DNA from: Clostridiaceae bacterium
GTDB taxonomy: Bacteria > Bacillota > Clostridia > Oscillospirales > QAMX01
Assembly (NCBI GenBank): GCA_034926225.1
Contig: JAYFRF010000009.1
Coordinates: 3,134 to 67,133 of the forward strand
DNA length: 64,000 nt
Reading direction: 5' to 3'
Shown: positions 9,067-40,326 of the stretch, in pieces
Layout: every line of letters begins with the position of its first letter
Numbering within the stretch: the first letter of the stretch is position 1
Program-made: the position numbers and the translations under genes
The notes under the pieces: generated by a model
What the model was told of the DNA's origin: nothing
The model's database searches: none
What the model saw: the letters and a program-made list of their open reading frames with translations, nothing else

Positions 9067-9084
9067 AAGCTTATACCTCTTGTG

Positions 9085-9762: not shown

Positions 9763-10014
9763 ATGAGTAAATGGAAAATTCACGAAGATGATACTTATGT
9801 ACAAGGATATTACCGACGAAGGCGTAATAGTGTAAAAAAAAACACAGGGAATGGCACAGGCAGTGTCGGTAGTTTGATTCTACTTTTTATTTTTTTTCCC
9901 TTTTTTTCATTAGGTTATATACCAGAATTAATAAAAAATAAAGCTTGGTTCTTGTTATTAATTATTGTGATTTATTTGGTATTTTATTGTAAATTTGTTA
10001 TTCGGCTTATATAA
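9763..10014 (+). CDS. Small predicted membrane protein (moron, opposite strand)
   Basis: A strong RBS (GTAGGAGGAATCAGTC-ATG) precedes the start. A basic N-terminus is followed by two hydrophobic stretches (LILLFIFFPFFSLGYI; WFLLLIIVIYLVFY). It is very AT-rich and followed by a terminator. Confidence 0.6.
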   Translation: MSKWKIHEDDTYVQGYYRRRRNSVKKNTGNGTGSVGSLILLFIFFPFFSLGYIPELIKNKAWFLLLIIVIYLVFYCKFVIRLI

Positions 10015-10111: not shown

Positions 10112-12787
10112 TTATATAAGCAATAAACCGCGTGTATCATACACACTTTCGCTCGTATCGTTTCCGCACCGTATCGCCCGGTCAAGCGCCATAATGGTAG
10201 CGACGGCACCGTCTATCTTCTCAGTGGATTTTTCCTTGTCTGCCTTAATGTTGCCCGCCGGGTCTGTGCGTATATAAATGTTGTCCATCATCCAGCGTAG
10301 TACCGGCTGACCGCCGTGGGCAAGCTTCTGTTCTAAGGTAAGCTTCATCAGCTCTTTTGTCGGTGGACTCATATCCTTGAAGCCCTGACCGAAGGGCACG
10401 ACGGAGAAGCCAAGGTTTTCGAGGTTCTGAGTCATCTGTACAGCACCCCAGCGGTCGAAAGCGATCTCTCGGATGTTATACTTCGTGCCGAGCTCCTCGA
10501 TAAAGGACTCGATGAAGCCGTAGTGGACGACGTTGCCTTCGGTGGTTTGTAGGAAACCCTGCCTCTTCCAAACATCATAGTTCACATGGTCACGCCGCAC
10601 ACGCAAATCGATGTTGTCCTTTGGTATCCAGAAATACGGAAGCACGATATACTTGTCATCCTCATTAACCGGTGGAAATACCAGGACGAAAGCAGTAATA
10701 TCGGTGGAGGACGAAAGGTCAAGTCCGCCGTAGCATACACGTCCCCGTAACACTTCCGGGTCAACCGGGAAAGCGCAGGCGTCCCATTTCTCCATCGGCA
10801 TCCAGCGTACGGCCTGTTTGACCCACTGGTTTAAGCGTAGTTGTCGAAAGCTGTTCTCCTCGGCGGGATTTTGCCGTGCCGACTCAAACGCCGCCTTGAC
10901 CTTATCCATACTCACCGTAATGCCGAGAGATGGGTTTGCTTTTTTCCACACCTTAGGATCAGTCCAGTCGTCCTCCGGCGCTGCGCCGTAAATAACCGGG
11001 TAGAAGGTTGAGTCGGTCTTGCGGCCGTCTATAATGTCCACCGCTTTCTGATGAACCTCCCAGCAGATGCTGTTCTGGTTATCTCCGGCGGTTGTAATAA
11101 GAAAATACAGCGGCTGCATTCTTGCGTCACCGCTGCCCTGGAGCATAACATCGTATAGTTTCCTGTTTGGCTGGGTATGAAGCTCATCAAATATAACACC
11201 GTGGGTGTTGAAACCATGCTTGTTCGCCACGTCCGCCGAAAGAGCCTTGTATTTGCTGCCGGTCGGAACATAGGTCATGGTTTTCAGGCTTGCCTGAATG
11301 CTCATTTTACTGAACAGATGAGGACAACGTTTGACCATATCCATCGCCACATCGAAAACGATACGCGCCTGGTCTTTATCCGCAGCACAGCCATAGACCT
11401 CGGCGCCGGGTTCAAAGTCCGCGCAGAGAAGATACAGCGCAACAGCCGCCGCGAGTTCGCTGTTATGTGTCGGCAAAAAAGAACGCCCCACCAGGTATTG
11501 ATGAGACGGGCTGTCAACCTGTATGCATTGCATTCCTCTGTTGGGTATAGGTTCGACGGCATCGATGTAGCGGAAATGACTCCGTGTGTAGGGATTCCTT
11601 ACGGCCGCACGTGATCGTTTGCGGTTCATACCTGACACGGGCATGTCTTCAAACGCAGTAAACTTCACATAGTACAGCGTCTCACCTGTCGGAACGCGGC
11701 CGCACTCTGTACTCGTCTTTGACCAGTCCCGCCTCTGCGTGGAGGGTGCGACGGTTATAGTATTTTTAATACCTAAACTCCACAGCAATTCACTGACACT
11801 TTCAGAGAGCGCTTTTTCTGTGGAGGTGTATATGCCTTGTCCTTTACGGGTACTGATACAGCCATCTGAATCCATTAACCCTTGCAGCAACCGCAACCGC
11901 TGCTGTCTCGAAGCCCTGATATATGGAAATGGAATCACTTTCTCGTGGAAGCTCTTTAACAGCACGGAACGCAGCGCCGGGATGTTGAAAACAATACTGT
12001 CGCCGGTGTTGTTCAAGGCGCTCAGCACCTCGTAATACGGTACTATGTTTTTTAGCACTCCGGCGACATCTTCGGTCTTTATTGTTACTTCAGGCCTTAC
12101 CGCATTCCCGTTACCAAGCCAGTAACCCATCAGATACGGTTCTATCGGCAAATCGGCATCGGGCACTTCAATGGCATCGGAAACGGCAATCCGAAATCGA
12201 ATCACCCCGTCATGCTTTGGCATACGGAACAATTCACCGGTTGTCATGGTGCAAGGCCTTCTCTTGCCGTGTGTATATTCACCCACCCACTGGTGGCGTT
12301 CTCCTGCGTCAATAACCTGTCCATCTTTAAAAATTATTCTGTATGCCTGTTCATCATAGTCTATCGCACTTTTTGCCACGACATGGCAGACGCGTCCCTT
12401 CTCATCAAATACCTGATCCCCAACCTGAATACTTCCCATTGTCGCAAACCCGGACGGAGTTGGAATGAGTGTGTCCAGCGCCAGTTGTTTGCCCATCTTC
12501 TTGGGGATCTCGATATATGCCGTATTGAACTGCCGGTATCCGTTCGGTTTTAGAATCCCGAATACATCCCGGATAATCTGTTCCTGCCAATCGATAAGCT
12601 CGAAAGGCTTACCGTCCCAAGTGCCTTTGGTATGGCAGCAGAAGTTTTCTATAAAGCACACAGCGTGGTCGGCGGCATCCTTGTCATAATGACTGCCTTC
12701 CGCCATAAAACGTGTGGGATGGTATTTATTAAGCTTTTTCAAGGATCCCGCCTCCTTCTGGACAAAATAATAGACCGCCATCAGCAA
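10112..12787 (-). CDS. terL: Terminase large subunit (Terminase_1-like) interrupted by an intein
   Basis: The extein sequence IEIPKKMGK/SELAAAVALYLL restores a Walker A context. The downstream nuclease half is typical. The probable true start is the TTG at 12742, after AGGAGG plus 8 nt. Confidence 0.9.
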   Translation of the reverse strand: MLMAVYYFVQKEAGSLKKLNKYHPTRFMAEGSHYDKDAADHAVCFIENFCCHTKGTWDGKPFELIDWQEQIIRDVFGILKPNGYRQFNTAYIEIPKKMGKQLALDTLIPTPSGFATMGSIQVGDQVFDEKGRVCHVVAKSAIDYDEQAYRIIFKDGQVIDAGERHQWVGEYTHGKRRPCTMTTGELFRMPKHDGVIRFRIAVSDAIEVPDADLPIEPYLMGYWLGNGNAVRPEVTIKTEDVAGVLKNIVPYYEVLSALNNTGDSIVFNIPALRSVLLKSFHEKVIPFPYIRASRQQRLRLLQGLMDSDGCISTRKGQGIYTSTEKALSESVSELLWSLGIKNTITVAPSTQRRDWSKTSTECGRVPTGETLYYVKFTAFEDMPVSGMNRKRSRAAVRNPYTRSHFRYIDAVEPIPNRGMQCIQVDSPSHQYLVGRSFLPTHNSELAAAVALYLLCADFEPGAEVYGCAADKDQARIVFDVAMDMVKRCPHLFSKMSIQASLKTMTYVPTGSKYKALSADVANKHGFNTHGVIFDELHTQPNRKLYDVMLQGSGDARMQPLYFLITTAGDNQNSICWEVHQKAVDIIDGRKTDSTFYPVIYGAAPEDDWTDPKVWKKANPSLGITVSMDKVKAAFESARQNPAEENSFRQLRLNQWVKQAVRWMPMEKWDACAFPVDPEVLRGRVCYGGLDLSSSTDITAFVLVFPPVNEDDKYIVLPYFWIPKDNIDLRVRRDHVNYDVWKRQGFLQTTEGNVVHYGFIESFIEELGTKYNIREIAFDRWGAVQMTQNLENLGFSVVPFGQGFKDMSPPTKELMKLTLEQKLAHGGQPVLRWMMDNIYIRTDPAGNIKADKEKSTEKIDGAVATIMALDRAIRCGNDTSESVYDTRGLLLI
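11462..12487 (-). mobile_element. Intein (342 aa) with LAGLIDADG-type endonuclease domain inserted in the TerL P-loop; class-3-like
   Basis: It covers residues 101-442 of the ORF. It starts QLALDTLIPT and ends FLPTHN, followed by a +1 Ser. Motifs are block B GERHQW, blocks C/E LMGYWLGNGNA and LLQGLMDSDGCIS, and block F MQCIQVD. Confidence 0.8.
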
Positions 12788-14277: not shown

Positions 14278-15516
14278 TTACTCATCTACAGTCACCTCCG
14301 TATAGGAGTAAATCACACCGTCGCGCTGTACGGAAACCTTGTCCGCCGAGCCGACCTGTTCGATGTACCGCTTGACAATAACGCCGCAGAACCGCTCATC
14401 GATTTCGGCTGTATAACAGATACGCCCGGACTGCTCACAGGCAATGAGCGTGGATCCGCTGCCGCCGAAGGGGTCGAGGACGATGGAGTTCGTCAGTGAT
14501 GAGTTCATTATGGGGTAAGCCAGAAGCGGTATCGGTTTCATCGTGGGGTGATCGCCGTTTTTCTTCGGCTTGTCGAACTCCCAGATGGTAGTTTCCTTCC
14601 TGCCGGTGTACCACTGATGCTTTCCGCTTTTCTTCCAGCCGTAGAGCACGGGCTCATGCTGCCACTGATACGGAGAGCGTCCGAGTACCAGAGACTGCTT
14701 TTTCCAGATACAGCAGCCGGAGAGATAGAACCCCGCGTCGGCAAAGGCACGGCGGAAATTCAACCCCTCGGTGTCTGCGTGGAATACATATATGGAGGCG
14801 TCGTCCGCCATGTAGCTTGCCATATTGGTAAAGGCGTCTAGGAGGAACTGATAGAACTTGTCGTTCGCCATATTGTCGTTCTTGATTTTTCCGGCGGAGC
14901 CTTCGTAATTAACGTTGTACGGAGGATCGGTCACTACTAGGTTGACGCGATGGTCGCCGATAAGAATATCATACGTTTCCTTTTTAGTGGAGTCGCCGCA
15001 GATAAGCCTGTGCCGTCCGAGCGTCCAGATATCACCGGTTTTTGAGAAGGTCGGCTTTTGCAGTTCAGCATCGACGTCGAAATCGTCATCCTTCACCTCG
15101 GTGTCCTTGCCGAACAAATCCGACAGGTCCTTTTCATCGAATCCTGTAAGGCCGAGGTCGAAGCCGAGACCCTCGAGTTCTTCCAACTCTATCTTCAATA
15201 GTTCCTCGTCCCATCCGGCATCGAGCGCCATACGGTTATCTGCGAGGATATACGCTTTCTTCTGCGCCTCGGTAAGATGGTCGACATATACACACGGTAC
15301 CTCGGTGATGCCTTCCTCCATAGCCGCCTGGATTCTGCCGTGTCCGGCGATGACACCGTAGCTGCGGTCGATGAGGACAGGGTTTACAAAGCCGAATTCC
15401 CGTAAAGAAGATCGGAGCTTTTTTATTTGCTCCGCCGAGTGTGTTCTCGCGTTATTCTGATAAGGCACCAGCTTTGCGATGGGCACGAGCCGCATCTCAG
15501 TCGTTGTCTTGCTCAT
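14278..15516 (-). CDS. ParB-like N-terminal domain fused to a DNA methyltransferase (N6-adenine/N4-cytosine, beta class)
   Basis: The N-terminus LVPYQNNARTHSAEQIKKLRSSLREFGFVNPVLID...GHGR is ParB/Srx-like. Motif IV is VVTDPPYN and motif I is LDPFGGSGSTLIACEQ. Confidence 0.9.
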   Translation of the reverse strand: MSKTTTEMRLVPIAKLVPYQNNARTHSAEQIKKLRSSLREFGFVNPVLIDRSYGVIAGHGRIQAAMEEGITEVPCVYVDHLTEAQKKAYILADNRMALDAGWDEELLKIELEELEGLGFDLGLTGFDEKDLSDLFGKDTEVKDDDFDVDAELQKPTFSKTGDIWTLGRHRLICGDSTKKETYDILIGDHRVNLVVTDPPYNVNYEGSAGKIKNDNMANDKFYQFLLDAFTNMASYMADDASIYVFHADTEGLNFRRAFADAGFYLSGCCIWKKQSLVLGRSPYQWQHEPVLYGWKKSGKHQWYTGRKETTIWEFDKPKKNGDHPTMKPIPLLAYPIMNSSLTNSIVLDPFGGSGSTLIACEQSGRICYTAEIDERFCGVIVKRYIEQVGSADKVSVQRDGVIYSYTEVTVDE

Positions 15517-16666
15517 GCTTTTTCACCGCCTCCCGGAGTTCCTGCGCACAGTGATTCCACTCCCATCTCTCGCAGCCGCCGAAGTGACCGTAGGTCGCGG
15601 TCGCGGAATAATCCGTGTCCTTCAGCTTGAGGAATTCGATAATGGCAGCCGGACGGAAGTTGAATGTATCAATAACAGCGTTTCTGATTGCCGTATCGGA
15701 ATACCTGCCTGTGCCGAAGGTATCGACCTGCACGGCGACGGGGTCAGCCTTGCTGATGGCATAGGAGACGGCGACCTGGCATTTATCCGCCAGACCGTTC
15801 TGCACGACAGACACGGCGACGCATCTCGCCATATAAGCTGCTGAGCGGTCGACCTTCGTGGGGTCTTTGCCGGAGAACGCTCCGCCGCCGTGCGCTCCCT
15901 CGCCACCGTAGGTGTCCACGATGATCTTTCTGCCAGTGAGCCCCGTATCTGCGGCGGGACCGCCTTTAACAAATCTGCCGGAGGGGTTGACGAGGATCTC
16001 CGTTTCCTCATCAAAAGGAAAGCCCTCGAACGCCGGCCACAGGACATTGGTGATAATTTCATTATGGAGAGCATCGAGGTCTTTGTCCTCGGAATGCTGA
16101 ACGGATACCACAATTGTCTTTACACGCTTGGGCTTTCGGTCTTCATACTGGACGGTCACCTGCGCTTTTCCGTCGGAGAAGATACCTTTGATGGTCCCGT
16201 CCGAGCGAACCTTGTCGAGCCGTTTACAGATCTGATGGGCAAGTTCCAGAGGCAGAGGAATAAGAGTTTTGGTTTCGTTGGTGGCGTAGCCGTAAACCGT
16301 ACCTTGATCCCCGGCGCCGATGGTGGAATACCAGGAGGTGTCTCCGTTTCTTGATTCAAGGGCTCTGGAAACGCCACCGTCGATGTCCTCCGATTGTTTA
16401 TGTATATATACATAAATGAGAAACCCCAGCGGATTGTATCCGGCTATCCGCAGGGCCTGTCTTGTAATAAATCGGATATCCACACGCTTTGAGCAGGTGA
16501 TCTCGCCCGCTACGATGATTTTGTGTCCCGTCGCCATGACCTCGCAGGCTACGCGGGAGGATTTGTCGAGCCGCATGCACTCGTCCAGAATGCTGTCGGC
16601 AATGAGGTCACACAGTTTATCCGGGTGACCGATGCATACGCTTTCACAGGTTTTATAGGATATCAT
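15497..16666 (-). CDS. metK: S-adenosylmethionine synthetase (phage-encoded MetK homolog)
   Basis: ESVCIGHPDKLCDLIADSILDE..., GAGDQG, and DTYGG...HGGGAFSGKDPTKVDRSAAY motifs. The start was refined to the ATG at 16666, directly after the terS stop (TGAtATG). Confidence 0.9.
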   Translation of the reverse strand: MISYKTCESVCIGHPDKLCDLIADSILDECMRLDKSSRVACEVMATGHKIIVAGEITCSKRVDIRFITRQALRIAGYNPLGFLIYVYIHKQSEDIDGGVSRALESRNGDTSWYSTIGAGDQGTVYGYATNETKTLIPLPLELAHQICKRLDKVRSDGTIKGIFSDGKAQVTVQYEDRKPKRVKTIVVSVQHSEDKDLDALHNEIITNVLWPAFEGFPFDEETEILVNPSGRFVKGGPAADTGLTGRKIIVDTYGGEGAHGGGAFSGKDPTKVDRSAAYMARCVAVSVVQNGLADKCQVAVSYAISKADPVAVQVDTFGTGRYSDTAIRNAVIDTFNFRPAAIIEFLKLKDTDYSATATYGHFGGCERWEWNHCAQELREAVKKHEQDND

Positions 16667-16667
16667 A

Positions 16668-17240
16668 TCAAAATCCCTTTCTCTGGTGCAGCAGTCTTTC
16701 CAAATCATCATTTGGGTTTGCGCCGCTGAAATCCACGGTACAGTTTTCCTTGACGATCTGCATGATGGCGTCCCACTGACGGGCTGCCTGATTCATATAG
16801 TTGATACCGATGTTTATAAACGGAGAAGTGATGGGCTTTCCGGTTGTCGGATGTTTTGAGAGGAAGCCAAGTTCATTGGTCATCTCCTCGCACTGAATCC
16901 ATCGCGCCACGCACATGGCATAGCGCTCTAACGTCTGGGGAGACACATAGGAGGCACAGCCGATATTGTTGAGCCACTGCCATGTTTCCTCGTATACCGC
17001 CTTCGCACGGAGCTCTGTGCCGTCGCGCTGTTTTGCCGAGAGGATGTCTTTCGGCTTCGGCATTGCCGTCCCCTCAACATCGGGAATGTCCAGAACGGTA
17101 AGTTTCCTGCCGCCCGGATTTCCGTTGGCCGCTTTCTCTGTCACGGCCTTTTTCTTGCGTCCGGCGCCGGGTCTTTTTCCGCCCTGTCCGCCGGTGTTAT
17201 TCGATTTTGTCGGCATTTTCTCACCGCCTTTCTTTATCAC
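16668..17240 (-). CDS. terS: Terminase small subunit (P27 family-like)
   Basis: A basic N-terminus is followed by ...AKAVYEETWQWLNNIG...LERYAMCVARWIQCEEM.... It lies adjacent to an HNH endonuclease. The alternative start is the ATG at 17216. Confidence 0.75.
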   Translation of the reverse strand: MIKKGGEKMPTKSNNTGGQGGKRPGAGRKKKAVTEKAANGNPGGRKLTVLDIPDVEGTAMPKPKDILSAKQRDGTELRAKAVYEETWQWLNNIGCASYVSPQTLERYAMCVARWIQCEEMTNELGFLSKHPTTGKPITSPFINIGINYMNQAARQWDAIMQIVKENCTVDFSGANPNDDLERLLHQRKGF

Positions 17241-30604: not shown

Positions 30605-31047
30605 CGTTTCGCCGAAAATGAGCGCACGAAACTAAGGTGGTGGCACATCGGAGCTCCGGGAGCGGTCTTTATCACCGTTCCGAGAACCTCTATGTAACCT
30701 CCACCGCTTCATGGCCACTCAGCAGTGTGATATATTTTCTGAGCCGTATAATCCGCGGCTCCTGCGGACAGTTAAGCTTTTTTGAGCGAGCCTCTTGTAA
30801 AATCTCAAATAGTAATGTATAATTAAGTGTGATTTAGTGGTAACAAGTCGAAGTAAGTAAAGTTCTGCTTGGGTTCAATGTTGCGTGAGGAATGCTCAAA
30901 TGGCTTGTCCAGCCTTACAAGCTGATTATAGATAATTTAAGTTCCACCTTCACCGACTGGGGTTGGGACTTCGTTCGGACGAATTAGGACATTATTCAGA
31001 CAATTCGGACCGATGCATAAATCGGAGGACATGAGAGGGATGCAGGA

Positions 31048-33381
31048 ATGAAATACACGGATTATTTCTCAAATTTCTATATGGGCAGAAGCTCCGGTGG
31101 CATCCTTGGGCACAAGTCCAAAGAAAAGATTCCAGAATACTTTTTCAATGCCGCGTTACCTGAAGATCACTATGAACTTTTGCCAACTTCGAACAGCACA
31201 TACGGAAAATGGTTTGATGGGACACGAAAACCAGAAGGCGTTATTTGGGGAACAGTTGTTTCGCATTTTGACGAAGATGGTTTTATTGACGAGACCTCGA
31301 AAAAGCTGAATGACAGTGTGTTAAGGGACATCATGCATCGCTTTGGCATTGAATTACAAACAGGAGAAAATCCTGATAAACACCTCTTTGCGTTTTCGCT
31401 GGCTAAACTGTTTTATGCAATCGCTCAAGGAAATGGAGAGACCACAGACGAAGCAAAGAATTATTACAAGCCAGAAGCACATATCATTTCTTTTCATCAG
31501 TACGTTGCACGGACAATAGCTAAATACGAGAAAATAAAAACGCCCTTCTCGGAAGGAGAAGAGCGTTTGATAGACGATATATATGTTTGCAATAAATTGA
31601 GTAGCCGGCTCTCAGCTACAAGGAACCGGCACCGCGGAACTCAAGAAAAAATTATTCTTAATGCGACTCTCGACTTGATTGAAGAATATTCAAAGAAAGT
31701 CATCCTTGTTGCAAATGGCGGAATGGGAAAAACGATGCTGCTTCAGCATCTGCTTCTTGAATCAGTCCGTAAGCACACACAAACGGGTCTGCTTCCAATC
31801 ATAATCGAACTCCGCGACTTTAGCGAGGGCAATGATCTGTTGAATGATTACATAATAAAGACAGCAAGTGTTTATGATGAAAACTTGACCAGCAAAAAAG
31901 TCGAAGAGTTGATGATATCAGGCAAATGCCAAATTCTTATGGATGGCGCTGATGAGATTGATCCTTCCGATGAAAAAGCATTTCAGCGGAAAATAGCTGA
32001 ACTTATCGATAGATACCCATACAATCAGTATGTCTTGGCCTCTAGGGAATGTGGGTTATTAAAAGGCATCACTGGTTTCTCACGGATGTATCTTCACCCC
32101 TTCAGCAGGGAGCAGTCAACTACACTAATTGATAACCTCTTAAAGGGTTGTGACGACGAAGCCATTATCGAAAGTATAAAAAATTACACGGAGGGCGATT
32201 TTCTCCAAAGGCACAAGGTGTTTGCTTCAAATCCCATGCTACTGACCTTTGTTATTATGAAGTATCCTATTGTGGAATCCTTTGATGGAAAAAAGAGACT
32301 ATTTTATAGAGCTGTATATGATGCAATCGTATATGGACACGATGAGGAAAAGGAAGGTTATTCTAGAGTATTTAGAAGTGCTCAAAATGCTGATGAATTT
32401 ACAAAGGTATTTGCCGAACTATGTGCCACCACATATATGAAGCACGAAGCAGAGTTTGATCTTGACACATTTGATGAGTACTTTAACAACCTGGCCACGA
32501 AGAATAGTATTGAAAACCCCAAAGCCATGACCAGTAAAAGCTTTATACACGATGCCTGTGCAACAGCGTGCATGATGTACGAGCAAGAGACGAAGCTCTT
32601 ATATATCGACCCAGGTTTTCAGGAGTATTTGTTTGCCAAGTACTATTTTTCAGCAGCACCCGAGGAATTGATTGCCCTTGGACAAAGCCTTTGGGATATT
32701 GCAGAAACAGAGTTTGAAGGACTCGACGCTTTTGAAATGTTAAATGAGTTTTCCCCTGAGAAATATGAACGGTATTTTCTCAAGCCGTTTTTGGAGAATG
32801 TTTTTCAGGGAAAGGATGAAGCCAAATATTTCATAACATTTTTGCGATATGGGTACCGAGATCTGGAATATCAAATGATTGATCTTGATTGTGTCGCAGC
32901 GTATGCAACGAAAGAAAAGTCCGAATGGGCTTCACCAAAGCCCGCCGTTACGGAACCATCTAGCCTCGTTTTTTCGATGTTACTACGAAAGCTGGGCACT
33001 CCCTGTCTATTGTGCTTGACCATTTTCGAGAAAGCACTTGATTATTCCGAGTTTATGACTGCCGGGATATATGGGGAACTTTATTTCGACCCGGCTGACA
33101 GTAAAAATAAAATTGTCCCTCGCAGATTGTTGCATCAAGAAACTCAAGATTTACAAGCTTACGAGAGAACACACGCAGTCGAAAACCATGTCCGTGATGA
33201 TGCAAAGCAGCTTGTATGTTTTGGACGCGAATATAAGGTTGATTTTAATAAGGTTCTGGAAACACCTGAGAACTACACCGATTTAATCAATGTTCTGAAA
33301 ACGCCAGAAGAAGATGTGTGGAAAACCTTTTGCAAGGTAAAAGAATACTATGAGGGTTTGGTAACAAGATATGGCACTTAA
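31048..33381 (+). CDS. NACHT-type STAND NTPase (NLR-like), flanking domains unassigned
   Basis: Walker A is VILVANGGMGKTMLL (nt 31717-31734) and Walker B is QILMDGADEID (31933-31956). These are followed by YVLASRE, LHPFSREQ and ASNPMLLTFV, which match the NACHT motif order. Confidence 0.8.
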   Translation: MKYTDYFSNFYMGRSSGGILGHKSKEKIPEYFFNAALPEDHYELLPTSNSTYGKWFDGTRKPEGVIWGTVVSHFDEDGFIDETSKKLNDSVLRDIMHRFGIELQTGENPDKHLFAFSLAKLFYAIAQGNGETTDEAKNYYKPEAHIISFHQYVARTIAKYEKIKTPFSEGEERLIDDIYVCNKLSSRLSATRNRHRGTQEKIILNATLDLIEEYSKKVILVANGGMGKTMLLQHLLLESVRKHTQTGLLPIIIELRDFSEGNDLLNDYIIKTASVYDENLTSKKVEELMISGKCQILMDGADEIDPSDEKAFQRKIAELIDRYPYNQYVLASRECGLLKGITGFSRMYLHPFSREQSTTLIDNLLKGCDDEAIIESIKNYTEGDFLQRHKVFASNPMLLTFVIMKYPIVESFDGKKRLFYRAVYDAIVYGHDEEKEGYSRVFRSAQNADEFTKVFAELCATTYMKHEAEFDLDTFDEYFNNLATKNSIENPKAMTSKSFIHDACATACMMYEQETKLLYIDPGFQEYLFAKYYFSAAPEELIALGQSLWDIAETEFEGLDAFEMLNEFSPEKYERYFLKPFLENVFQGKDEAKYFITFLRYGYRDLEYQMIDLDCVAAYATKEKSEWASPKPAVTEPSSLVFSMLLRKLGTPCLLCLTIFEKALDYSEFMTAGIYGELYFDPADSKNKIVPRRLLHQETQDLQAYERTHAVENHVRDDAKQLVCFGREYKVDFNKVLETPENYTDLINVLKTPEEDVWKTFCKVKEYYEGLVTRYGT

Positions 33382-33401: not shown

Positions 33402-33641
33402 TTGGACATGAAAGATAGTAAAGTAAATGCTGTAGAACATTGGCTTAGCCTCGAGGAAATTTCAAAGCACGTTGGCTGCAGCAAGGACACCATCCGGTCC
33501 TGGGTCAAAAAGGATACCATTCCCTTCCATAAAGTTGGAAGGCTGTACAAATTTAGAGTATCCGAAGTGGACGCTTGGATTGAAAGCGGCGCAAGCGCAG
33601 ATGCAGATAAAAACAATTCGGAGGTAAAAGACAATGGCTGA
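33402..33641 (+). CDS. Excisionase/MerR-type helix-turn-helix DNA-binding protein
   Basis: WLSLEEISKHVGCSKDTIRSWVKKDTIPFHKVGRLYKFRVSEVDAWI. Its 3' end overlaps the hsdM start by 8 nt (ATGGCTGA). Confidence 0.8.
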   Translation: MDMKDSKVNAVEHWLSLEEISKHVGCSKDTIRSWVKKDTIPFHKVGRLYKFRVSEVDAWIESGASADADKNNSEVKDNG

Positions 33642-35226
33642 CATGAAAAAAGAGCAGGAGCGGGATGAGCTCCACCGTGCCATTTGGGCGATTGCCGACG
33701 AGCTGCGTGGTGCCGTAGACGGTTGGGATTTTAAGAACTATGTGCTTGGAACGATGTTCTACCGCTATATTTCCGAAAATTTGACCGCGTACATCAACGA
33801 CGGCGAGATTGAAGCCGGAAATACCAGTTTTGACTATGCCAAACTGAAAGATGCGGAAGCGGAGGAAGCCCGCGTCGGCCTAGTGCAGGAAAAGGGATTC
33901 TTCATTCTGCCCAGTGAGCTTTTTTGCAACGTGAGAGCCAGAGCCGCCAGCGGAGAAGGTTGGACTTACCCCAACGGCAAAGAAAAGCTGCTCAATGAAA
34001 AGCTGGAGGAAGTGTTTAGCCACATCGAGGAATCCGCCCAAGGCAGTGCTTCTGAAAACAGTTTTGCAGGGCTATTCGATGACTTTGATGTAAACAGTAA
34101 CAAGCTGGGCAGTACCGTCGCAAAGAGAAATGAGCGTCTTGCAAAGCTGCTGGATGGCGTTGCCGCCATGAATCTCGGTTCTATCAAAGACCATGACATC
34201 GATGCTTTTGGCGATGCCTATGAATTTTTAATGACTATGTACGCCTCCAATGCAGGCAAATCGGGCGGCGAGTTTTTCACCCCAGCAGATGTGTCCGAAC
34301 TGTTGACCCGTCTTGGTACGGTGGGCAAGAAAACCATCAACAAGGTTTATGACCCCGCCTGCGGTTCCGGCTCTCTGCTTTTAAAAGCCGAAAAAATTCT
34401 GGGCAAAGATTCAGTTACTACCGGGTTCTATGGTCAGGAAATCAATATCACCACCTACAACCTTTGCCGCATAAATATGTTTCTGCACGATATTGGCTTT
34501 GATAAGTTTGATGTGGAGTGCGAGGATACACTGATTAACCCGCAGCACTGGGACGATGAGCCCTTTGAACTGATCGTATCCAATCCGCCCTACTCCATCA
34601 AATGGGTGGGCGATGAAAACCCCTTGCTCATTAACGACCCTCGGTTTTCTCCCGCTGGTATCCTTGCACCAAAGAGCAAAGCCGACCTTGCCTTTATCAT
34701 GCACAGCCTTTCTTGGCTTGCAAGCAACGGAACGGCTGCCCTAGTCTGCTTCCCGGGCATTATGTACCGTGGCGGCGCAGAACAGAAAATCCGTAAATAC
34801 TTAATCGACAACAACTTTGTGGACTGCATTATTCAGTTGCCAAGTAACCTGTTTTTTGGCACCTCCATTGCCACCTGCATCATGGTGATGAAGAAGAACA
34901 AGAGCGACAACAAAACCCTGTTTATTGACGCATCCAACGAGTGTATTAAGGTCACCAATAACAACAAGCTGACCCCGGTAAATATCGACCGCATTGTGGA
35001 CACCTTTGCAAAGCGGGAGGAAGTGGCGAACTTCTCCCACCTTGCCGGTTATGATGAAGTAGCAGAAAACAACTATAACCTCTCGGTTTCCACCTATGTG
35101 GAGGAGGAGGACACCCGGGAAGAGATTGATATTGCCAAGCTGAATGCTGAGATTGAAGAAATCGTCATGCGCGAGGACGAACTGCGAGAAGCTATTCGGA
35201 ATATTATTGAAGAAATCGAGGCGTAA
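33634..35226 (+). CDS. hsdM: Type I restriction-modification system, methyltransferase subunit
   Basis: The N-terminal HsdM_N-like region has LWAIADELRG. Motif I is VYDPACGSGSLL and motif IV is VSNPPYSIKW. Confidence 0.95.
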   Translation: MADMKKEQERDELHRAIWAIADELRGAVDGWDFKNYVLGTMFYRYISENLTAYINDGEIEAGNTSFDYAKLKDAEAEEARVGLVQEKGFFILPSELFCNVRARAASGEGWTYPNGKEKLLNEKLEEVFSHIEESAQGSASENSFAGLFDDFDVNSNKLGSTVAKRNERLAKLLDGVAAMNLGSIKDHDIDAFGDAYEFLMTMYASNAGKSGGEFFTPADVSELLTRLGTVGKKTINKVYDPACGSGSLLLKAEKILGKDSVTTGFYGQEINITTYNLCRINMFLHDIGFDKFDVECEDTLINPQHWDDEPFELIVSNPPYSIKWVGDENPLLINDPRFSPAGILAPKSKADLAFIMHSLSWLASNGTAALVCFPGIMYRGGAEQKIRKYLIDNNFVDCIIQLPSNLFFGTSIATCIMVMKKNKSDNKTLFIDASNECIKVTNNNKLTPVNIDRIVDTFAKREEVANFSHLAGYDEVAENNYNLSVSTYVEEEDTREEIDIAKLNAEIEEIVMREDELREAIRNIIEEIEA

Positions 35227-36440
35227 TGATGAGCAAATTAAATGAATTGATTGCTAAATTATGCCCATATGGGGTGGAATATCGAGAACTCGGGGCATTC
35301 GCCCAAAATGAGAAGAAAAAGAATATAGGAGAACATTGTAAGTTGGCCTACAGCATTACACAAGCGGGATTGATTCCCACTTCCGAATACTTCAAAGGTG
35401 CAAAAGTTACAAGTGATGATACTTCCGGATATAGAATTGTAAAAAGAAATTGGTTTGTATATTCTCCTTCTCGAATTGATGTTGGTTCAATTAATTATCT
35501 TAGAGATAAAGATGAAGTGATCGTGAGTCCGCTCAATGTTGTTTTTAGTGTTAATGAAACGGAGATCCGTCCAGATTATCTCTTATACTTTCTGAACTCA
35601 CGGAGCGGAACATGGCAAATAATAACGAGTCGAGAGGGAATCGAGGGTACAGGACGAAAACTGCTACCGTTTGATAAGTTTAAGAAAATAATAGTTCCCG
35701 TTCCCCCTCTGCCCGTGCAGGCTGAGCTTGTCCGTATTCTGGACAATTTTACGGAACTTACAGCGGAGCTTACAGCGGAACTTACAGCGAGAAAAAAGCA
35801 GTATGAATATTATAGAGATAGTCTGTTGAAATGTGACAGCAGCGCTGAATGGAAATCAATGGGAGAAATCGGAAATTTTATAAGGGGTAGAAGATTTGTT
35901 CATGCAGATGATAGGCAAAATGGTATTCCTTGTATTCATTATGGCGAATTGTATACCCATTATGGCATTTCGGCAACGAATGTAAAAACTTATATAAATC
36001 CAGAGTTAAAAACCAACTTCCGATATGCAAAAAAGAATGATGTTGTTATTGTTGCGGCTGGAGAAAATAAGGTTGATATTGGGGTTGGAGTTGCTTGGCT
36101 GGGCAATTATGATGTTGCGATACACGACGCTTGCTTTATTTTCTGCCATAATCAAAATCCTAAATATATATCATATTTCTTGCGAACGGAAATGTTTCAC
36201 CAGCAAATTATTAAATTTGTGTCAGAAGGTAAAATATGTTCTATATCTGCCAATGGACTTGCAAAAGCAAAAATCCCGTTGCCACCCCTTGCCGAACAAC
36301 AGCGCATCGTCACCATCCTCGACCATTTCGATACCCTTTGCAACGATATTTCAACCGGTCTCCCCGCTGAAATCGCCGCACGACAAAAGCAATATGAATA
36401 CTATCGGGACAAGCTGCTGTCATTCCAAGAATTGACCTGA
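35226..36440 (+). CDS. hsdS: Type I restriction-modification system, specificity subunit
   Basis: Two target-recognition halves are each followed by a conserved helix (ELTARKKQYEYYRDSLL and AEIAARQKQYEYYRDKLL). The start overlaps the hsdM stop (TAATG). Confidence 0.9.
   Translation: MMSKLNELIAKLCPYGVEYRELGAFAQNEKKKNIGEHCKLAYSITQAGLIPTSEYFKGAKVTSDDTSGYRIVKRNWFVYSPSRIDVGSINYLRDKDEVIVSPLNVVFSVNETEIRPDYLLYFLNSRSGTWQIITSREGIEGTGRKLLPFDKFKKIIVPVPPLPVQAELVRILDNFTELTAELTAELTARKKQYEYYRDSLLKCDSSAEWKSMGEIGNFIRGRRFVHADDRQNGIPCIHYGELYTHYGISATNVKTYINPELKTNFRYAKKNDVVIVAAGENKVDIGVGVAWLGNYDVAIHDACFIFCHNQNPKYISYFLRTEMFHQQIIKFVSEGKICSISANGLAKAKIPLPPLAEQQRIVTILDHFDTLCNDISTGLPAEIAARQKQYEYYRDKLLSFQELT
35751..35789 (+). 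repeat. Tandem 12-bp repeats encoding (T)ELTAELTAELTA in the central conserved region of HsdS
   Basis: ACGGAACTT ACAGCGGAGCTT ACAGCGGAACTT ACAGCG. Confidence 0.9.
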
Positions 36441-36453
36441 GGAGGTGTAGAAA

Positions 36454-39400
36454 GTGCCATTTTTCAATATTGTTGCCGAAACCAATAAAAACACCGTTGT
36501 TACCGAATATGAGCCGGTCAGAACCCGATCCGATAGCTACCAGAGCGAGTCGGCCTTGGAACAGGAGTTTATTCGTCTGCTGTGTGAGCAAGGCTATGAT
36601 TATCTGCCCATCCACACCGAGGCCGACCTGATTGCCAACCTTCGCACAAAGCTGGAAGAACTCAACGATTACACCTTTACTGATACGGAATGGGAACGCT
36701 TCTTTTCCGACTGCATTGCCAACAAAAACGACGGCATTGTGGAAAAGACCCGCAAAATCCAAGAGGATTATGTGCAGGTGCTAAAGCGTGATGATGCCAT
36801 GACTAAAAACATCACGCTTATCGATAAAAAGAACATCCACAACAACCGCTTGCAGGTCATCAATCAGTACGTGCTTGGCAAAGAGGACGGCGCAACATAT
36901 GACAACCGCTATGATGAGACAGTGCTTGTAAATGGCCTGCCTCTTGTACATATCGAACTGAAACGCCGGGGCGTTGCCATTCGGGAGGCGTTCAACCAAA
37001 TTAACCGTTATCAGCGCGACAGCTTTTGGGCGGGCTGTGGCCTGTTTGAATATGTGCAGATTTTTGTCATCTCCAACGGCACGAACACCAAGTATTATTC
37101 CAACAGCACCCGATTTAATGCCATCAAAGATGCGTCATCCGGCAAAACCAAAAAGGGCAAAACAAGCAACAGCTTTGAGTTTACCTCGTTCTGGGCGGAC
37201 GCCAACAACAAGACGATTCCCGACCTGATTGACTTTACGAAGACCTTCTTTGCCCGGCACGCAATTTTAAATATTTTGACGAAGTACTGTGTTTTCACTT
37301 CTGAGAATATGCTGATGGTCATGCGTCCCTATCAGATTACCGCAACCGAGCGCATCCTCAACCGCATTGAGATTGCGCACAACTACAGAAAATACGGTGA
37401 CATTGCCGCCGGCGGTTATATCTGGCACACCACCGGTTCCGGTAAAACCTTGACTTCCTTCAAGACTGCACGGATTGCCTCGCAGTTGCCGTACATAAAT
37501 AAAGTCCTGTTTGTGGTAGACCGCAAAGACCTCGACTATCAGACCATGAAGGAATACGACCGCTTTGAAAAAGGTGCTGCCAACAGCAACACCTCAACTG
37601 CAATTTTGCAAAAACAGCTTGCTGGAACAAAAGAGCGTATCATCATCACCACAATTCAGAAGCTGTCGACCTTTATCAAGAAAAACAAGGAGCACTCGGT
37701 ATATAACAAAAACGTAGTTATTATCTTTGACGAGTGCCACCGTAGCCAGTTCGGAGATATGCACACGGCAATCGTGCAGAACTTCAAAAAGTATTATATG
37801 TTTGGCTTTACCGGAACTCCAATTTTCTCGGTTAACGCAGGCCGCGCGAAAAATGCGCAGTTCTTCACCACAGAGCAGACCTTCGGCGATCAGCTCCACG
37901 CCTACACCATTGTAGATGCCATCAACGATAGAAACGTGCTGCCCTTCCGTGTGGACTATATCAAAACAATGGATACTGACCGGGATATCGACGACGAGCA
38001 GGTTTGGGACATCGACCGTGAAAAGGCGTTCATGGCTCCGCAGCGCATTTCATTGGTCGCCAAATACATCCTGGATCACTTCGATCAGAAAACCTATCGT
38101 GGCGATAAGTCGTACATCTTTAGTCAGATGACAAATATTTCAGATGTAGCCTCGGCGAAAAGAGGAGCAGTTGAGGAAATTAAACAAAAACAGCGTATCA
38201 GCGGTTTCAACTCTATTTTTGCGGTGGCGTCTGTGGACATAGCAAAGCTGTATTATGATGAATTCCGCAAGAAGATGCGGGAAGACCCCATCAAGCAACT
38301 AAAAATCGCTGTAATCTACAGCTATGCCCCGAATGAGGAAGAAACTGACGGCATCCTTGATGAGGAAAATCCGGAGGATACTTCCGCACTGGACAAGACC
38401 TCCCGCGATTTTCTGGAGAGTGCAATAGACGATTATAACGGGATGTTCCACACCACCTATGACACCTCTTCCGACAAGTTTCAGAACTACTACAAGGATG
38501 TATCTCTGCGGATGAAGAACAAGGAACTGGACCTTTTAATTGTGGTCAACATGTTCCTCACCGGCTTTGACGCTACTACGCTCAACACTCTGTGGGTAGA
38601 TAAAAACCTCAAGATGCACGGCTTGATTCAGGCATTCAGCCGCACCAATCGAATTCTCAATTCGATTAAGACTTTCGGTAATATTGTTTGCTTCCGCAAT
38701 TTGCAAAAGAGAGTGGATGCAGCAATCTCGCTGTTCGGAGATAAAAATGCCGGCGGTATTGTTTTGCTGCAGAGCTTCAAAGATTATTATTACGGATACG
38801 AATCTGTGGATGGCACCCCGAAGCCGGGTTACATTGATATGATCGAGGACTTGTCAAACAAGTTCCCTCTGTCAGAGCCACAGATTATTGGCGAAAAGAA
38901 TCAGAAGGACTTTATTTCACTGTTTGGCGCTATCCTGCGTATTCGTAATCTTTTGGTCTCCTTTGATGAATTTAAGGGGAAAGAAATGATTACCGAGCGC
39001 GATCTGCAGGATTATCTGGGCAGATACCAGGACCTGCGCGATGAATGGAAGCGCAAACGTGAAAATGGTGAAAGCACTGATATTATTGATGATATTGTAT
39101 TCGAGATTGAACTGATCAAGCAAATCGAAATCAATATTGACTATATTCTTATGCTGGTGAAGAAGTACCACGATACGCATTGTGAGGACAAAGAGGTGCT
39201 TGTCACCATCAAAAAGGCAATCGACGCCAGCCCTGAACTGCGCAGCAAAAAGCAGCTGATTGAAACCTTTATTGCCGGGGTCAATGATGTGGATGATGTC
39301 ATGAGCGAATGGCATGGTTTCGTTGCCCAGCAGCGCGAGCAGGATCTTTCTGCACTGATTCAAGACGAAAAGTTGAAGCCGGCAGAAACTCGTATTTTCT

Positions 39401-39585
39401 TGGAAAACTCGTTCCGAGAAGGCGAGATAAAGACTGTTGGTACGGATATTGATAGAATTATGTCACCTGTGAGCCGCTTTGGGGGCGGAAATAGGGAGAA
39501 AAAGAAACAGAGTATCATTGATAAGCTGAAAGCATTCTTTGAGAAGTATTTTGGAATTGGTGGATCGAATAAATTTACATGCTGA
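36454..39585 (+). CDS. hsdR: Type I restriction-modification system, restriction (helicase-nuclease) subunit
   Basis: A 1043-aa ORF with a GTG start after GAGGAGGTG. Motifs are HTTGSGKTLTSF, FDECHRSQFG, and the C-terminal helicase motif FSRTNR. Confidence 0.95.
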   Translation: MPFFNIVAETNKNTVVTEYEPVRTRSDSYQSESALEQEFIRLLCEQGYDYLPIHTEADLIANLRTKLEELNDYTFTDTEWERFFSDCIANKNDGIVEKTRKIQEDYVQVLKRDDAMTKNITLIDKKNIHNNRLQVINQYVLGKEDGATYDNRYDETVLVNGLPLVHIELKRRGVAIREAFNQINRYQRDSFWAGCGLFEYVQIFVISNGTNTKYYSNSTRFNAIKDASSGKTKKGKTSNSFEFTSFWADANNKTIPDLIDFTKTFFARHAILNILTKYCVFTSENMLMVMRPYQITATERILNRIEIAHNYRKYGDIAAGGYIWHTTGSGKTLTSFKTARIASQLPYINKVLFVVDRKDLDYQTMKEYDRFEKGAANSNTSTAILQKQLAGTKERIIITTIQKLSTFIKKNKEHSVYNKNVVIIFDECHRSQFGDMHTAIVQNFKKYYMFGFTGTPIFSVNAGRAKNAQFFTTEQTFGDQLHAYTIVDAINDRNVLPFRVDYIKTMDTDRDIDDEQVWDIDREKAFMAPQRISLVAKYILDHFDQKTYRGDKSYIFSQMTNISDVASAKRGAVEEIKQKQRISGFNSIFAVASVDIAKLYYDEFRKKMREDPIKQLKIAVIYSYAPNEEETDGILDEENPEDTSALDKTSRDFLESAIDDYNGMFHTTYDTSSDKFQNYYKDVSLRMKNKELDLLIVVNMFLTGFDATTLNTLWVDKNLKMHGLIQAFSRTNRILNSIKTFGNIVCFRNLQKRVDAAISLFGDKNAGGIVLLQSFKDYYYGYESVDGTPKPGYIDMIEDLSNKFPLSEPQIIGEKNQKDFISLFGAILRIRNLLVSFDEFKGKEMITERDLQDYLGRYQDLRDEWKRKRENGESTDIIDDIVFEIELIKQIEINIDYILMLVKKYHDTHCEDKEVLVTIKKAIDASPELRSKKQLIETFIAGVNDVDDVMSEWHGFVAQQREQDLSALIQDEKLKPAETRIFLENSFREGEIKTVGTDIDRIMSPVSRFGGGNREKKKQSIIDKLKAFFEKYFGIGGSNKFTC

Positions 39586-39616
39586 TCAAATTTTGCGCTC
39601 GGGAGGTGTTGAGCAT

Positions 39617-39946
39617 ATGGGCCGAGGTTAAAGTATCAATCTATTTTTAATGGACGGAACCGCCACGGGACGAATAAAACGTACCCTTGCTAACTGGACG
39701 AGTGTGGCATATAACAAATAGTGTTGTCTCGCTCACACCTACCAAAAGTTGTCCGGAAGCAATTATTAAGCGTAGAAAAGCCTGTCAGGAAAAATCGATG
39801 TCGAGGGCGTGTTAACTGAAAACACTTTGTTTGGAAGTCCCTCCACAGCGGCGGCCTTTGTTACTTTTGGCGGTGCTAATGGAAATATTATATGGGAAAC
39901 CGCTGAAGGACACACTTTAAAAGACGTCGAGCGGTCTGAAAGCTAG
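39617..39946 (+). pseudogene. Decayed DUF4357/GIY-YIG-associated gene remnant
   Basis: The pieces lie in different frames. They are M-G-R-G-stop; AEVKVSIYF; LMDGTATGRIKRTLANWTSVAYNK-stop; and a C-terminal piece ENTLFGSPSTAAAFVTFGGANGNIIWETAEGHTLKDV, which is the DUF4357 signature. The middle of the gene is missing. Confidence 0.6.
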
Positions 39947-40190
39947 CTAGTAAATGCCGCTAAAGATAGTGCAGGCATGCGATAGCCAGGGCGTTTTGAA
40001 CCCTTTTATTTTTCCTTGAACTTCGTTATTTTTCGTAGAACTATTTTATTTTTCCTAAAGGGGTATTCAAATTGTGCCTTGAGCCGAGAGTACTTCCGAA
40101 GCCCCAAGACGCAAAAAAAGCCTGCAATACAAAGAATTTTGCATACCCGTATGGGGCAAATCCCTTGTATTGCAGGCTTTCTTGATATGA

Positions 40191-40236
40191 ATAATAAAAG
40201 AATTGACCGTAGCATTGTATCAATGCTACGGTCAAT
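40191..40236 (-). terminator. Rho-independent terminator downstream of tRNA-Leu
   Basis: A perfect 16-bp stem ATTGACCGTAGCATTG / CAATGCTACGGTCAAT with a 3-nt loop. On the minus strand it is followed by TTCTTTTATTAT. Confidence 0.7.
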
Positions 40237-40239
40237 GTT

Positions 40240-40326
40240 TGGTGCCGGTGGCGGGGGTCGAACCCGCACGGTGTCGCCACCGCGGGATTTTGAGTCCCGT
40301 ACGTCTGCCAATTCCATCACACCGGC
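40240..40326 (-). tRNA. tRNA-Leu (anticodon CAA), class II with long variable arm, CCA encoded
   Basis: GCCGGTG...ACGGGA-CTCAAAA-TCCCG-CGGTGGCGACACCGTG-CGGGTTCGACCCCCG-CCACCGGC-A-CCA folds as a cloverleaf, with CAA at positions 34-36. Confidence 0.9.

Follow-up and report, generated by a model that had tools for sequence, protein, structure and literature searches.

Bacterial proteins related to NLRs have so far been seen as sensors encoded by solitary genes, with an N-terminal effector that brings about the death of the cell. Those of the NACHT clade are marked by a NACHT-specific Walker B signature, D[GAS]hDE, and the SNaCT domains at their C-termini were defined as putative, fast-diversifying sensors (Kibby et al.). 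For bNACHT11, several phage proteins with no relation to each other are bound by the SNaCT domain, which also drives the protein to assemble as a heptamer. Multimerisation of MalT enables cooperative binding to repeated MalT boxes, and the repeats of SARP/AfsR regulators are spaced 11 or 22 bp apart, i.e., by whole helical turns. The ABC-3C systems are type II Lamassu, in which the effector sits at the N-terminus of the CTD-bearing LmuA subunit.

Here we describe a NACHT gene (31048..33381, + strand) in a 64,000-nucleotide stretch of DNA from a Clostridiaceae bacterium (assembly GCA_034926225.1, contig JAYFRF010000009.1, positions 3,134 to 67,133), hereafter the window, whose numbering is used throughout. 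The family to which this gene belongs breaks two of the expectations set by bacterial NLRs: across phages and mobile elements of Bacillota it is joined to a restriction-modification (R-M) operon, and its putative output domain resembles a DNA reader that co-varies with a repeat array in the leader. With chances that we put only a little short of even, the window protein may be a signal-responsive DNA-binding NLR, similar in logic to MalT and AfsR, that controls the restriction system with which it would be co-transcribed.

Domain architecture of the NACHT protein

The open reading frame proposed by an earlier, sequence-only reading of the window is real; it begins with ATG, encodes 777 residues, and contains GGMGKT, ILMDGADEID, VLASRE, HPFSREQ, and NPMLL in that order, as the reading had described. 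The Walker A motif (GGMGKT, lysine K228) conforms to GxxGxGK[ST], while the Walker B motif, D299-G-A-D302-E303, fits the NACHT-specific signature. Alignments of 29 and of 80 relatives show no substitution at K228, D299, D302, E303, R333, or H431. Pfam NACHT (PF05729) matches residues 218-362 at 36.9 bits against a cutoff of 26.7, and is matched by 29 of 29 relatives. A full-length AlphaFold2 model based on the 80-sequence alignment has a mean predicted local distance difference test score (pLDDT) of 87.9 and a predicted template modelling score of 0.75; Foldseek with this model retrieves NLRC4, NOD2, NLRP3, and NAIP5 (probability 1.00, E 6e-9 to 1e-6). The window protein belongs to the NACHT clade of STAND NTPases and shows all of its computationally testable features. 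Its description as a bacterial NACHT/STAND protein of the antiphage-associated kind, carried on a mobile element, stands.

The NACHT module (31690..32748, +) comprises a P-loop NTPase (residues 215-362) followed by helical and winged-helix domains (residues 363-567). The latter segment is conserved like the P-loop domain (mean pairwise identity 0.52), and we assign it to the helical/winged-helix part of the module. An identical protein is present in NCBI (MEA4824096.1), where its label is merely "NACHT domain-containing protein", and the sole PADLOC match of the window protein, PDC-S60, lies in the NTPase region. Searches of PDB sequences with the protein, with the family profile, and with a profile of the N-terminal domain gave nothing past one P-loop match. 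In agreement with the earlier reading, no nuclease, TIR, protease, PLD, or repeat domain was detected in the window protein or in 28 relatives.

The sequence-only reading had considered both flanks of the NTPase unassignable, which holds for the N-terminus but not for the approximately 300 C-terminal residues. Beyond the NACHT module, residues 568-777 (32749..33381, +, including the stop codon) form a mixed alpha/beta domain corresponding to SNaCT14 (PF22720). The match of the window protein itself is borderline (26.9 bits, just under the cutoff of 27.0; E 7e-6; residues 568-771), while across the family the profile is matched by 20 of 29 relatives, with E values as low as 4.7e-13, and reaches 177 bits in a more distant relative at locus L040. 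A word-indexed search with the SNaCT14 profile returned fragments only. This is also the most variable domain of the protein, with a mean pairwise identity of 0.36 and an entropy of 2.16 bits, compared to 0.52 and 1.47-1.51 bits for the NACHT module. Judged at the level of the family, the sensor flank is thus a member of a described class rather than the new sensing module that had been anticipated, and the C-terminus alone accounts for the match to domains of a described bNACHT clade that the reading had named as evidence against novelty.

The N-terminal domain and the leader repeats

The N-terminal domain (N-domain; 31048..31479, +; residues 1-144) is all-helical, folds confidently in the model (pLDDT >90), and contains an XRE-like helix-turn-helix (HTH) core with predicted helices at residues 39-44, 49-57, and 64-73. 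It is joined to the NACHT module by a linker (31480..31689, +; residues 145-214) with a conserved YVCN motif and reduced pLDDT, which falls below 50 in a flexible loop at residues 190-195; this linker is common to relatives with other N-termini. The N-domain belongs to no Pfam family: a scan of 27 N-domain sequences gave neither a family nor an HTH at E <= 10. A profile of the domain found nothing meaningful among PDB sequences (best E 0.59), Foldseek found nothing significant in the PDB (best E about 1), and in BFVD it found uncharacterised phage proteins only (E 6e-3). The N-terminal region is therefore, as had been supposed, one without a known homolog. The HTH assignment comes from hhalign, which aligns residues 40-75 to the helix 2-4 core of HTH_3 (probability 82.6%, E 1e-5, 36 columns) without support from Pfam or the fold; in addition, profile positions 37-112 match tandem HTH_3 repeat proteins.

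An exhaustive profile search of 1.84 billion cluster representatives returned just 142 proteins with the N-domain, the majority of which share the architecture of approximately 780 residues. The others place the same domain on different scaffolds. It is fused to CTD6 of an ABC-3C system (P0195, whose gene adjoins MC2; profile E 3e-22) and is found on a NACHT-FGS protein (P0240), a WD40 protein (P0242), another P-loop protein (P0244), and proteins of approximately 300 residues; a word-indexed search with the ABC-3C-type N-domain gave no matches. Because it also occurs on ABC-3C, NACHT-FGS, WD40, and other scaffolds, the N-domain is, judging by these sequences, a shuffled output module of conflict systems. 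The slot that it occupies can also be filled by something else: in the sister protein P0084 an OmpR-type winged helix (Trans_reg_C, above the Pfam cutoff) replaces the N-domain and is followed by the same linker and NACHT-SNaCT14 body.

Conserved positions in the N-terminal region are mostly aromatic or hydrophobic (Y11, W55, W67, Y140, and Y152). An enzymatic N-terminus was considered and rejected, as the conserved positions lack a catalytic-type pattern. The new effector suggested by the sequence-only reading is consequently unlikely to be an enzymatic killer, given the absence of catalytic-type residues, the XRE-like HTH core, and the presence of cognate repeats upstream.

These repeats lie in the leader of the gene, downstream of a promoter-like site, P1 (30795..30823, +; TTGTAA-17-TATAAT), which is the best + strand match in the region (10/12). 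We aligned the 460 nt upstream of the NACHT ATG from 12 loci; both P1 hexamers are kept in all of them, with the consensus TCTTGTAAA-N17-TGTATAAT. The GGAC array (30954..31010, +), which we propose as the operator of the N-domain, contains six (G)GAC direct repeats whose GAC cores start at 30955, 30967, 30978, 30988, 30999, and 31008, i.e., with spacings of 12, 11, 10, 11, and 9 nt. A seventh GGAC follows after a 20-nt gap (31027-31030, core 31028), and a weak -10-like hexamer, ATAAAT, is found at 31017-31022, a few bases beyond the 3' repeat of the array. The ribosome-binding site, GAGAGGGA (31033..31040, +), is located 7 nt before the ATG and reads GAGAGGG or GAGGA in relatives.

All of the aligned loci (12/12) keep the GAC cores unchanged, including those whose NACHT proteins share only 33-40% identity. 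In the window the three-unit array pattern occurs once, compared to 0.10 expected. Among 39 distinct leaders, 22 have a chain of four or more identical 4-mers set 9-12 nt apart, and in 18 the chain has five or more, whereas chains of at least four appear in 0.6% of first-order Markov simulations and in 0.9% of random 110-nt segments from the same loci. The array in such leaders is one of 5-7 direct repeats about one helical turn apart, and the repeated word varies with the NACHT clade. GGAC(A) is found in most; CGGAT is found in L076 and L031, GATA/GGATA in L004 and L025, GGAA/AGAA in L035 and L037, TTGGCTT in L033, and CTTATAG in L081. The leader RNA is no more stable than expected (z +0.70), and Rfam gave no match to it.

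Two proteins of the locus could in principle read such words: the N-domain and the product of a small HTH_17 gene that follows the NACHT gene. The HTH_17 protein was rejected as reader of the variable repeats because its recognition segment is the same in every repeat class. The putative recognition helix of the N-domain (residues 47-55), in contrast, differs between repeat classes. The arrays also follow the N-domain to its other scaffolds: GGACATTT x3 is found upstream of the ABC-3C CTD6 gene bearing the N-domain, TAGA x6 upstream of the NACHT-FGS gene bearing it, and GACA x3 with 10-11 nt spacing upstream of a phage N-domain protein, while there are no arrays upstream of R-M-linked sister NACHTs with other N-termini. 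This co-occurrence of array and N-domain across scaffolds is stronger evidence than the differences in the recognition helix. Taken together, the N-domain looks like a DNA-reading domain matched to the repeat array of the leader.

The leader also contains a repeat element that does not vary. Right after the -10 hexamer of P1, nAAGT occurs four times with exactly 10-nt spacing (30824..30858, +). In relatives its consensus is TAAGTnTGA x3, it is unchanged between clades, and it is present in all aligned loci and also in L038, a locus without the N-domain and with HTH_17. We speculate that this element is a candidate site for the HTH_17 protein.

Linkage to Type I restriction

The NACHT gene is followed on the same strand by four genes. 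The HTH_17 gene (33408..33641, +) encodes 77 residues from its ATG (Pfam HTH_17, 53.6 bits) and begins 26 nt after the NACHT stop codon, an interval that includes a ribosome-binding site, GGAAGGGAG. It overlaps the start of hsdM by 8 nt, an arrangement by which the two genes would be translationally coupled. Next are hsdM (33634..35226, +), encoding a Type I methyltransferase (N6_Mtase, 377 bits; HsdM_N); hsdS (35226..36440, +), encoding the specificity subunit (Methylase_S in two stretches); and hsdR (36454..39585, +), encoding an EcoR124-type restriction subunit (HSDR_N, SWI2_SNF2, T1R_D3-like, and EcoR124_C). hsdM and hsdS overlap, 13 nt separate hsdS from hsdR, and no + strand terminator is found within NACHT-HTH_17-hsdMSR. 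From this layout the NACHT gene is predicted to be the promoter-proximal gene of a five-gene operon, NACHT-HTH_17-hsdM-hsdS-hsdR, and the same gene order occurs beside homologs at 89, 70, 40, and 34% identity. In the literature that we searched, we found no described NACHT-hsd operon, N-domain, or repeat array of its kind.

We surveyed 72 loci from species-representative genomes and IMG/VR and counted those in which the family member is intact and followed by 300 nt or more of sequence (n = 34, some of them near-duplicates between the two collections). In 34/34, hsdM lies on the same strand 250-290 nt past the NACHT stop; HTH_17 lies between them in 33/34, and hsdS and hsdR follow wherever the sequence extends. 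The sequence-only reading correctly noted a Type I R-M system adjoining the NACHT gene (33634-39585) and took it as defence-island context; the survey shows instead that a conserved cassette with short distances between its genes begins with the NACHT gene. Of three apparent exceptions, L039 and L041 are truncated or frameshifted remnants, and L040 is an intact NACHT that precedes a restriction system of another kind.

The cassette occurs in Lachnospiraceae, Oscillospiraceae, Christensenellales, Paenibacillus, Selenomonas, Clostridium, and a metagenome-assembled genome labelled "Leucobacter". HsdM and HsdR are 74-96% identical across these diverse hosts while the NACHT proteins drop to 30% identity, which implies that the R-M core spread horizontally in recent times and that its NACHT partner has highly diverged or been replaced.

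The linkage belongs, on the evidence of the N-terminal variants, to the NACHT-SNaCT14 body. The Trans_reg_C variant (L117) is likewise followed by hsdM, and R-M linkage is also seen in L038 and L082, which have other N-termini. That the linkage might be tied to the N-domain was rejected, as the NACHT-FGS and ABC-3C carriers of the N-domain have no R-M neighbours. Distant NACHTs (20-28% identity, without the N-domain) show no such linkage. At L052, from Bacteroides, a Dcm-like gene is found approximately 600 nt after a distant NACHT gene. The locus L040 (L040:4900-13200) encodes an intact canonical-SNaCT14 NACHT with another N-terminus and its own HTH_17, followed by a different R-M system composed of a C5 methylase, a HATPase_c_3 protein, and an Mrr-helicase (Mrr_cat). 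Because L040 precedes a different restriction system, SNaCT14-NACHT/HTH_17 front-ends may be attached to more than one kind.

Seven viral contigs encode equally close hsdM and hsdR without NACHT or HTH_17, and one of them (L087) has the same phage backbone as the window; in these NACHT-less loci, homology to the window starts 15 nt before the hsdM ATG. The dependence is one-sided: an intact NACHT of this family was never found without R-M, while R-M occurs without NACHT. HTH_17 is found only alongside NACHT; none of the seven copies of this hsdM clade that lack NACHT has it, and the NACHT loci without it are L034 and L117. Elsewhere, the slot 5' of this hsdM clade contains GmrSD and Mrr, integrase genes, Mob genes, or nothing, so that the position upstream of hsdM is a variable defence slot. 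On one viral contig (L112:2072-5829), for example, a GmrSD-type Type IV enzyme with DUF4268 and DUF7662 lies upstream of the same hsdM clade together with an Mrr_cat protein that additionally matches "NACHT-associated inactive REase 1".

Proposed mechanism and alternatives

In the regulator that we propose, the fast-evolving C-terminal SNaCT14 domain would be the sensor; by analogy to bNACHT11, it would probably bind a phage-encoded protein, possibly one that targets the linked restriction system. The central NACHT ATPase would serve as an oligomerisation switch, and the N-terminal XRE-like HTH would read the GGAC array between the operon promoter and the ribosome-binding site. An ATP-dependent oligomeric change triggered by the sensor could then alter the cooperative occupancy of the repeat array, with the N-domains occupying or releasing the operator and thereby changing transcription of NACHT-HTH_17-hsdMSR. 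The output would be regulated restriction and not an enzymatic kill. The domain architecture, the layout and conservation of the operon, the periodicity and clade-specific words of the array, and its co-occurrence with the N-domain are observed directly, while binding of the array by the N-domain, its taking place at the DNA level, the sign of the regulation, the nature of the signal, and the phenotype are matters of inference.

Several observations weigh against this proposal. The N-domain has neither a Pfam HTH match nor a significant Foldseek match to HTH proteins, its HTH assignment being one of profile-profile similarity alone, and it is acidic, with a net charge of -6 that is unusual in a DNA binder. 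The code relating recognition residues to repeat words is not clean, as DSSYE is found with GGAC in L022 and DSSYD with GAA in L035. The array is located 3' of the strong P1, a position typical of repression, yet 5' of the weak -10-like hexamer, a position typical of activators, leaving the sign of regulation ambiguous. R-M linkage persists in array-less variants without recognisable DNA-binding N-termini (L038/L082 and L040), and therefore the N-domain by itself cannot account for the coupling to R-M; nor does the R-M need the NACHT, since close relatives of the R-M cassette are found that lack it. Finally, the N-domain occupies the slot that holds toxic effectors in Lamassu/ABC-3C, which fits killing better than pure autoregulation.

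This last point leads to the alternative that we take most seriously while considering it rather unlikely, namely that the protein is an abortive-infection NLR guarding the linked R-M in the manner of PrrC/EcoprrI, Ronin, or PARIS. SNaCT14 would then detect a phage protein, such as an anti-restriction factor, or an inhibited R-M complex; the NACHT would oligomerise, and the clustered N-terminal domains would act as a toxic or arresting effector, with the repeat array being a mere autoregulatory operator of a kind common in toxin-antitoxin and defence operons. Antiphage activity has been shown by experiment for SNaCT-type bNACHTs, the SNaCT of bNACHT11 binds phage proteins while its short N-terminal effector kills the cell, and SNaCT14 is the most variable domain of the window family. 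Its one-sided dependence on R-M matches that of PrrC and RonA, which are almost exclusively R-M-linked, and linkage in every N-terminal variant points to the NACHT-SNaCT14 body as the coupling partner, with the N-domain in the effector slot of LmuA-like ABC-3C proteins. However, the N-domain has no invariant catalytic-type residues and no transmembrane or pore-like character, two independent HTH-type domains (XRE-like and Trans_reg_C) fill the N-terminal slot, and the conservation of the array with its clade-specific switching suggests that DNA reading is a core function; nor is there homology to PrrC, RonA, or AriAB. A guard and a regulator are not mutually exclusive, as SNaCT14 could sense an attack on restriction and respond with a transcriptional output.

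The same operon could instead serve the establishment or homeostasis of a mobile R-M system, with NACHT-HTH_17 as a large analogue of C proteins that times or limits hsdR expression upon entry into an unmethylated host or upon induction, and that senses the state of the host or element and not a foreign phage. Phage-like and other mobile elements do carry the cassette, the leader of the operon itself contains the putative operator array, HTH_17 appears translationally coupled to hsdM, and NACHT-HTH_17 forms a separate two-gene module whose junction with the R-M genes falls precisely at the hsdM ribosome-binding site. Such a role is nonetheless improbable, as a 777-residue NLR-like sensor with a rapidly diversifying domain is hard to square with housekeeping timing, and L087 carries the same R-M clade on the same phage backbone without NACHT-HTH_17. 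An independent single-gene bNACHT that merely travels with R-M in a phage defence hotspot, its adjacency due to common descent and the repeats unrelated to the protein, would agree with the typically solitary bNACHT genes (Kibby et al.) and with the variable slot upstream of this hsdM clade. This reading is disfavoured, and we would give it slightly less credence still, since 34/34 loci preserve gene order, strand, and the spacing of approximately 26 nt although NACHT identity falls to 30%, a canonical-SNaCT14 relative (L040) precedes a different R-M, and the arrays change along with the protein clade and accompany the N-domain on other scaffolds. Least probable of all, to the point that we would be surprised by it, is that the array is an RNA-level element, such as a structured leader or a site for an RNA-binding protein, or a set of phage replication-origin iterons, and not a NACHT operator. 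It does lie in the transcribed leader of P1 and near the phage replication module, but its 10-11 nt periodicity fits one turn of the DNA helix. An RNA element was rejected on the fold z-score of +0.70 and the lack of an Rfam match, and phage origin iterons were rejected because this phage backbone has no array where it lacks the NACHT, and because arrays also occur outside phages.

Extending the proposed regulator beyond the window, it is possible, as a tentative generalisation that we would not yet lean towards, that a portable repeat-reading N-domain with co-evolving, clade-specific operators lets NACHT, Lamassu/ABC-3C, and WD40 scaffolds switch transcription. The output of an NLR-like sensor would in this case be sequence-specific DNA binding instead of cell death, and a phage-borne Type I R-M system would be inducible or tunable through SNaCT. 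The chance that bacterial NLRs gain a new output mechanism here is substantial; if the generalisation is true, it would constitute a new output class for these proteins and the first known sensor-controlled Type I R-M operon. Confirmation would join NLR-type sensing to restriction, the oldest known defence, either as inducible restriction or as a new guardian of R-M, and would identify a small modular DNA-binding domain common to NACHT and Lamassu systems. The natural switches of repeat word (GGAC, GGAT, GATA, and TTGGCTT) provide a ready specificity panel.

Genomic context

The features that the sequence-only reading described around the gene are as it reported. The cassette occupies a low-GC island, with a GC content of 0.41-0.48 over 31-40 kb compared to 0.50-0.57 on the left and approximately 0.60 on the right. 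Prophage genes extend over 2.4-30.6 kb, to the left of the NACHT gene, and include capsid, portal, TerL, DNA polymerase A, an Enc34-type single-stranded DNA-binding protein, DUF2800, and a DUF927 primase. On the other side, the nearby tRNA is a tRNA-Leu(caa) (40240..40326, - strand; ARAGORN and Rfam), whose 3' end faces the cassette and which is probably the integration site and right boundary of the element. No integrase was found in the window, nor a second (att) copy of the tRNA-Leu 3' end or long delimiting direct repeats. The cassette is also present on 12 IMG/VR contigs, and phage replication modules or ParAB, Mob, or integrase genes lie near copies of it. We take the operon to be cargo of a temperate phage-like element that probably integrated next to tRNA-Leu.

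The interval from hsdR to the tRNA (39586-40240), approximately 650 nt, is non-coding or degenerate. A direct repeat of 19 nt is found there at 39998 and 40038, and a hairpin with 16 perfectly paired bp (40202-40236) abuts the 3' end of tRNA-Leu.

Within the prophage, TerL (10112-12787, -; 890 residues) contains a LAGLIDADG homing-endonuclease domain (residues 296-353) before its ATPase and nuclease domains, suggesting from the domain order that terL has been interrupted by an intein or by insertion of a homing endonuclease. Two diverged copies of a 77-nt direct repeat (9637-9713 and 10218-10294, 71% identity) lie at the 3' end of terL, next to a low-GC patch (9001-10000, 0.374) with no long open reading frame. 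A second patch (1001-2000, 0.377), inside or beside the prophage, is associated with the open reading frame of a GNAT acetyltransferase (1586-2137, +). The prophage further encodes a full-length MetK-like S-adenosylmethionine synthetase (15497-16711, -), whose gene adjoins that of a ParB_N-fused N6/N4 DNA methylase (14278-15516, -). A phage supply of S-adenosylmethionine and a methylase located beside a Type I R-M system that depends on the same cofactor may represent a link to self-protection or counter-defence.

One further phage locus (L116:3001-6632) encodes a 291-residue protein consisting of the N-domain and a C-terminal half without assignment. It is followed, 27 nt on, by a 909-residue helicase/nSTAND3-like protein and then by a DNA methylase, and, in an arrangement close to that of the window, a sigma-like gene is transcribed divergently from it. 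The locus may be another N-domain-fronted defence cassette.

Comparison with known systems

The closest described relatives of the window protein are the bNACHTs of NACHT clade 14, bNACHT01 and bNACHT11. They share with it the D[GAS]hDE NACHT module, a short non-repeat C-terminus of SNaCT class (a borderline match in the window protein) that is more variable than the core, and residence on mobile elements and in phage genomes; ATP-dependent oligomerisation would be expected of the window protein by analogy. It lacks two features of SNaCT-type bNACHTs, namely the short N-terminus and the solitary gene. Its N-terminal region is 215 residues long and includes a folded HTH-like domain, while bNACHT11 has an effector of approximately 45 residues, and its Walker A lysine is at position 228 compared to K115 in bNACHT01. 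The window gene lies in a strict operon with HTH_17 and R-M and has a leader array, whereas the bNACHTs were reported as solitary (Kibby et al.).

PrrC-EcoprrI, Ronin (RonA-HsdMS), and PARIS resemble the window locus in having an accessory gene that is tightly and one-sidedly linked to hsd. A second-layer role, set off when restriction comes under attack, is plausible. In sequence and structure, however, the window protein is unrelated to PrrC (an ABC ATPase with an anticodon nuclease), RonA (a 61-residue membrane peptide), and AriAB, and no ABC/anticodon-nuclease or OLD-type domain was found in it with Pfam or NCBIfam. Unlike in these systems, the NACHT gene is located upstream of hsdM and not embedded, and a full hsdR is kept. 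With Lamassu/ABC-3C systems of the LmuA type the window protein shares the N-domain alone, which occupies the N-terminal output slot of CTD6 proteins and is preceded there by the GGACATTT array; it has no CTD and neither ABC nor MC partners.

The logic proposed here is that of MalT and of AfsR (SARP-NOD-TPR), in which one protein joins a sensor and a STAND ATPase to a DNA-binding domain and the target DNA consists of direct repeats set whole helical turns apart, DNA binding by the window protein being a prediction. SARPs use an OmpR-type winged helix, and the sister protein P0084 carries the same. The ATPases of MalT and AfsR belong to MalT or NB-ARC-like clades, and their sensors are TPR/SUPR, whereas the window protein has an ATPase of the NACHT clade and a SNaCT14 sensor with no TPR or other repeats. 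It also differs from both in its new XRE-like module and in having a phage restriction system as its putative target. Its likeness to MalT and AfsR is one of analogous mechanism and not of homology.

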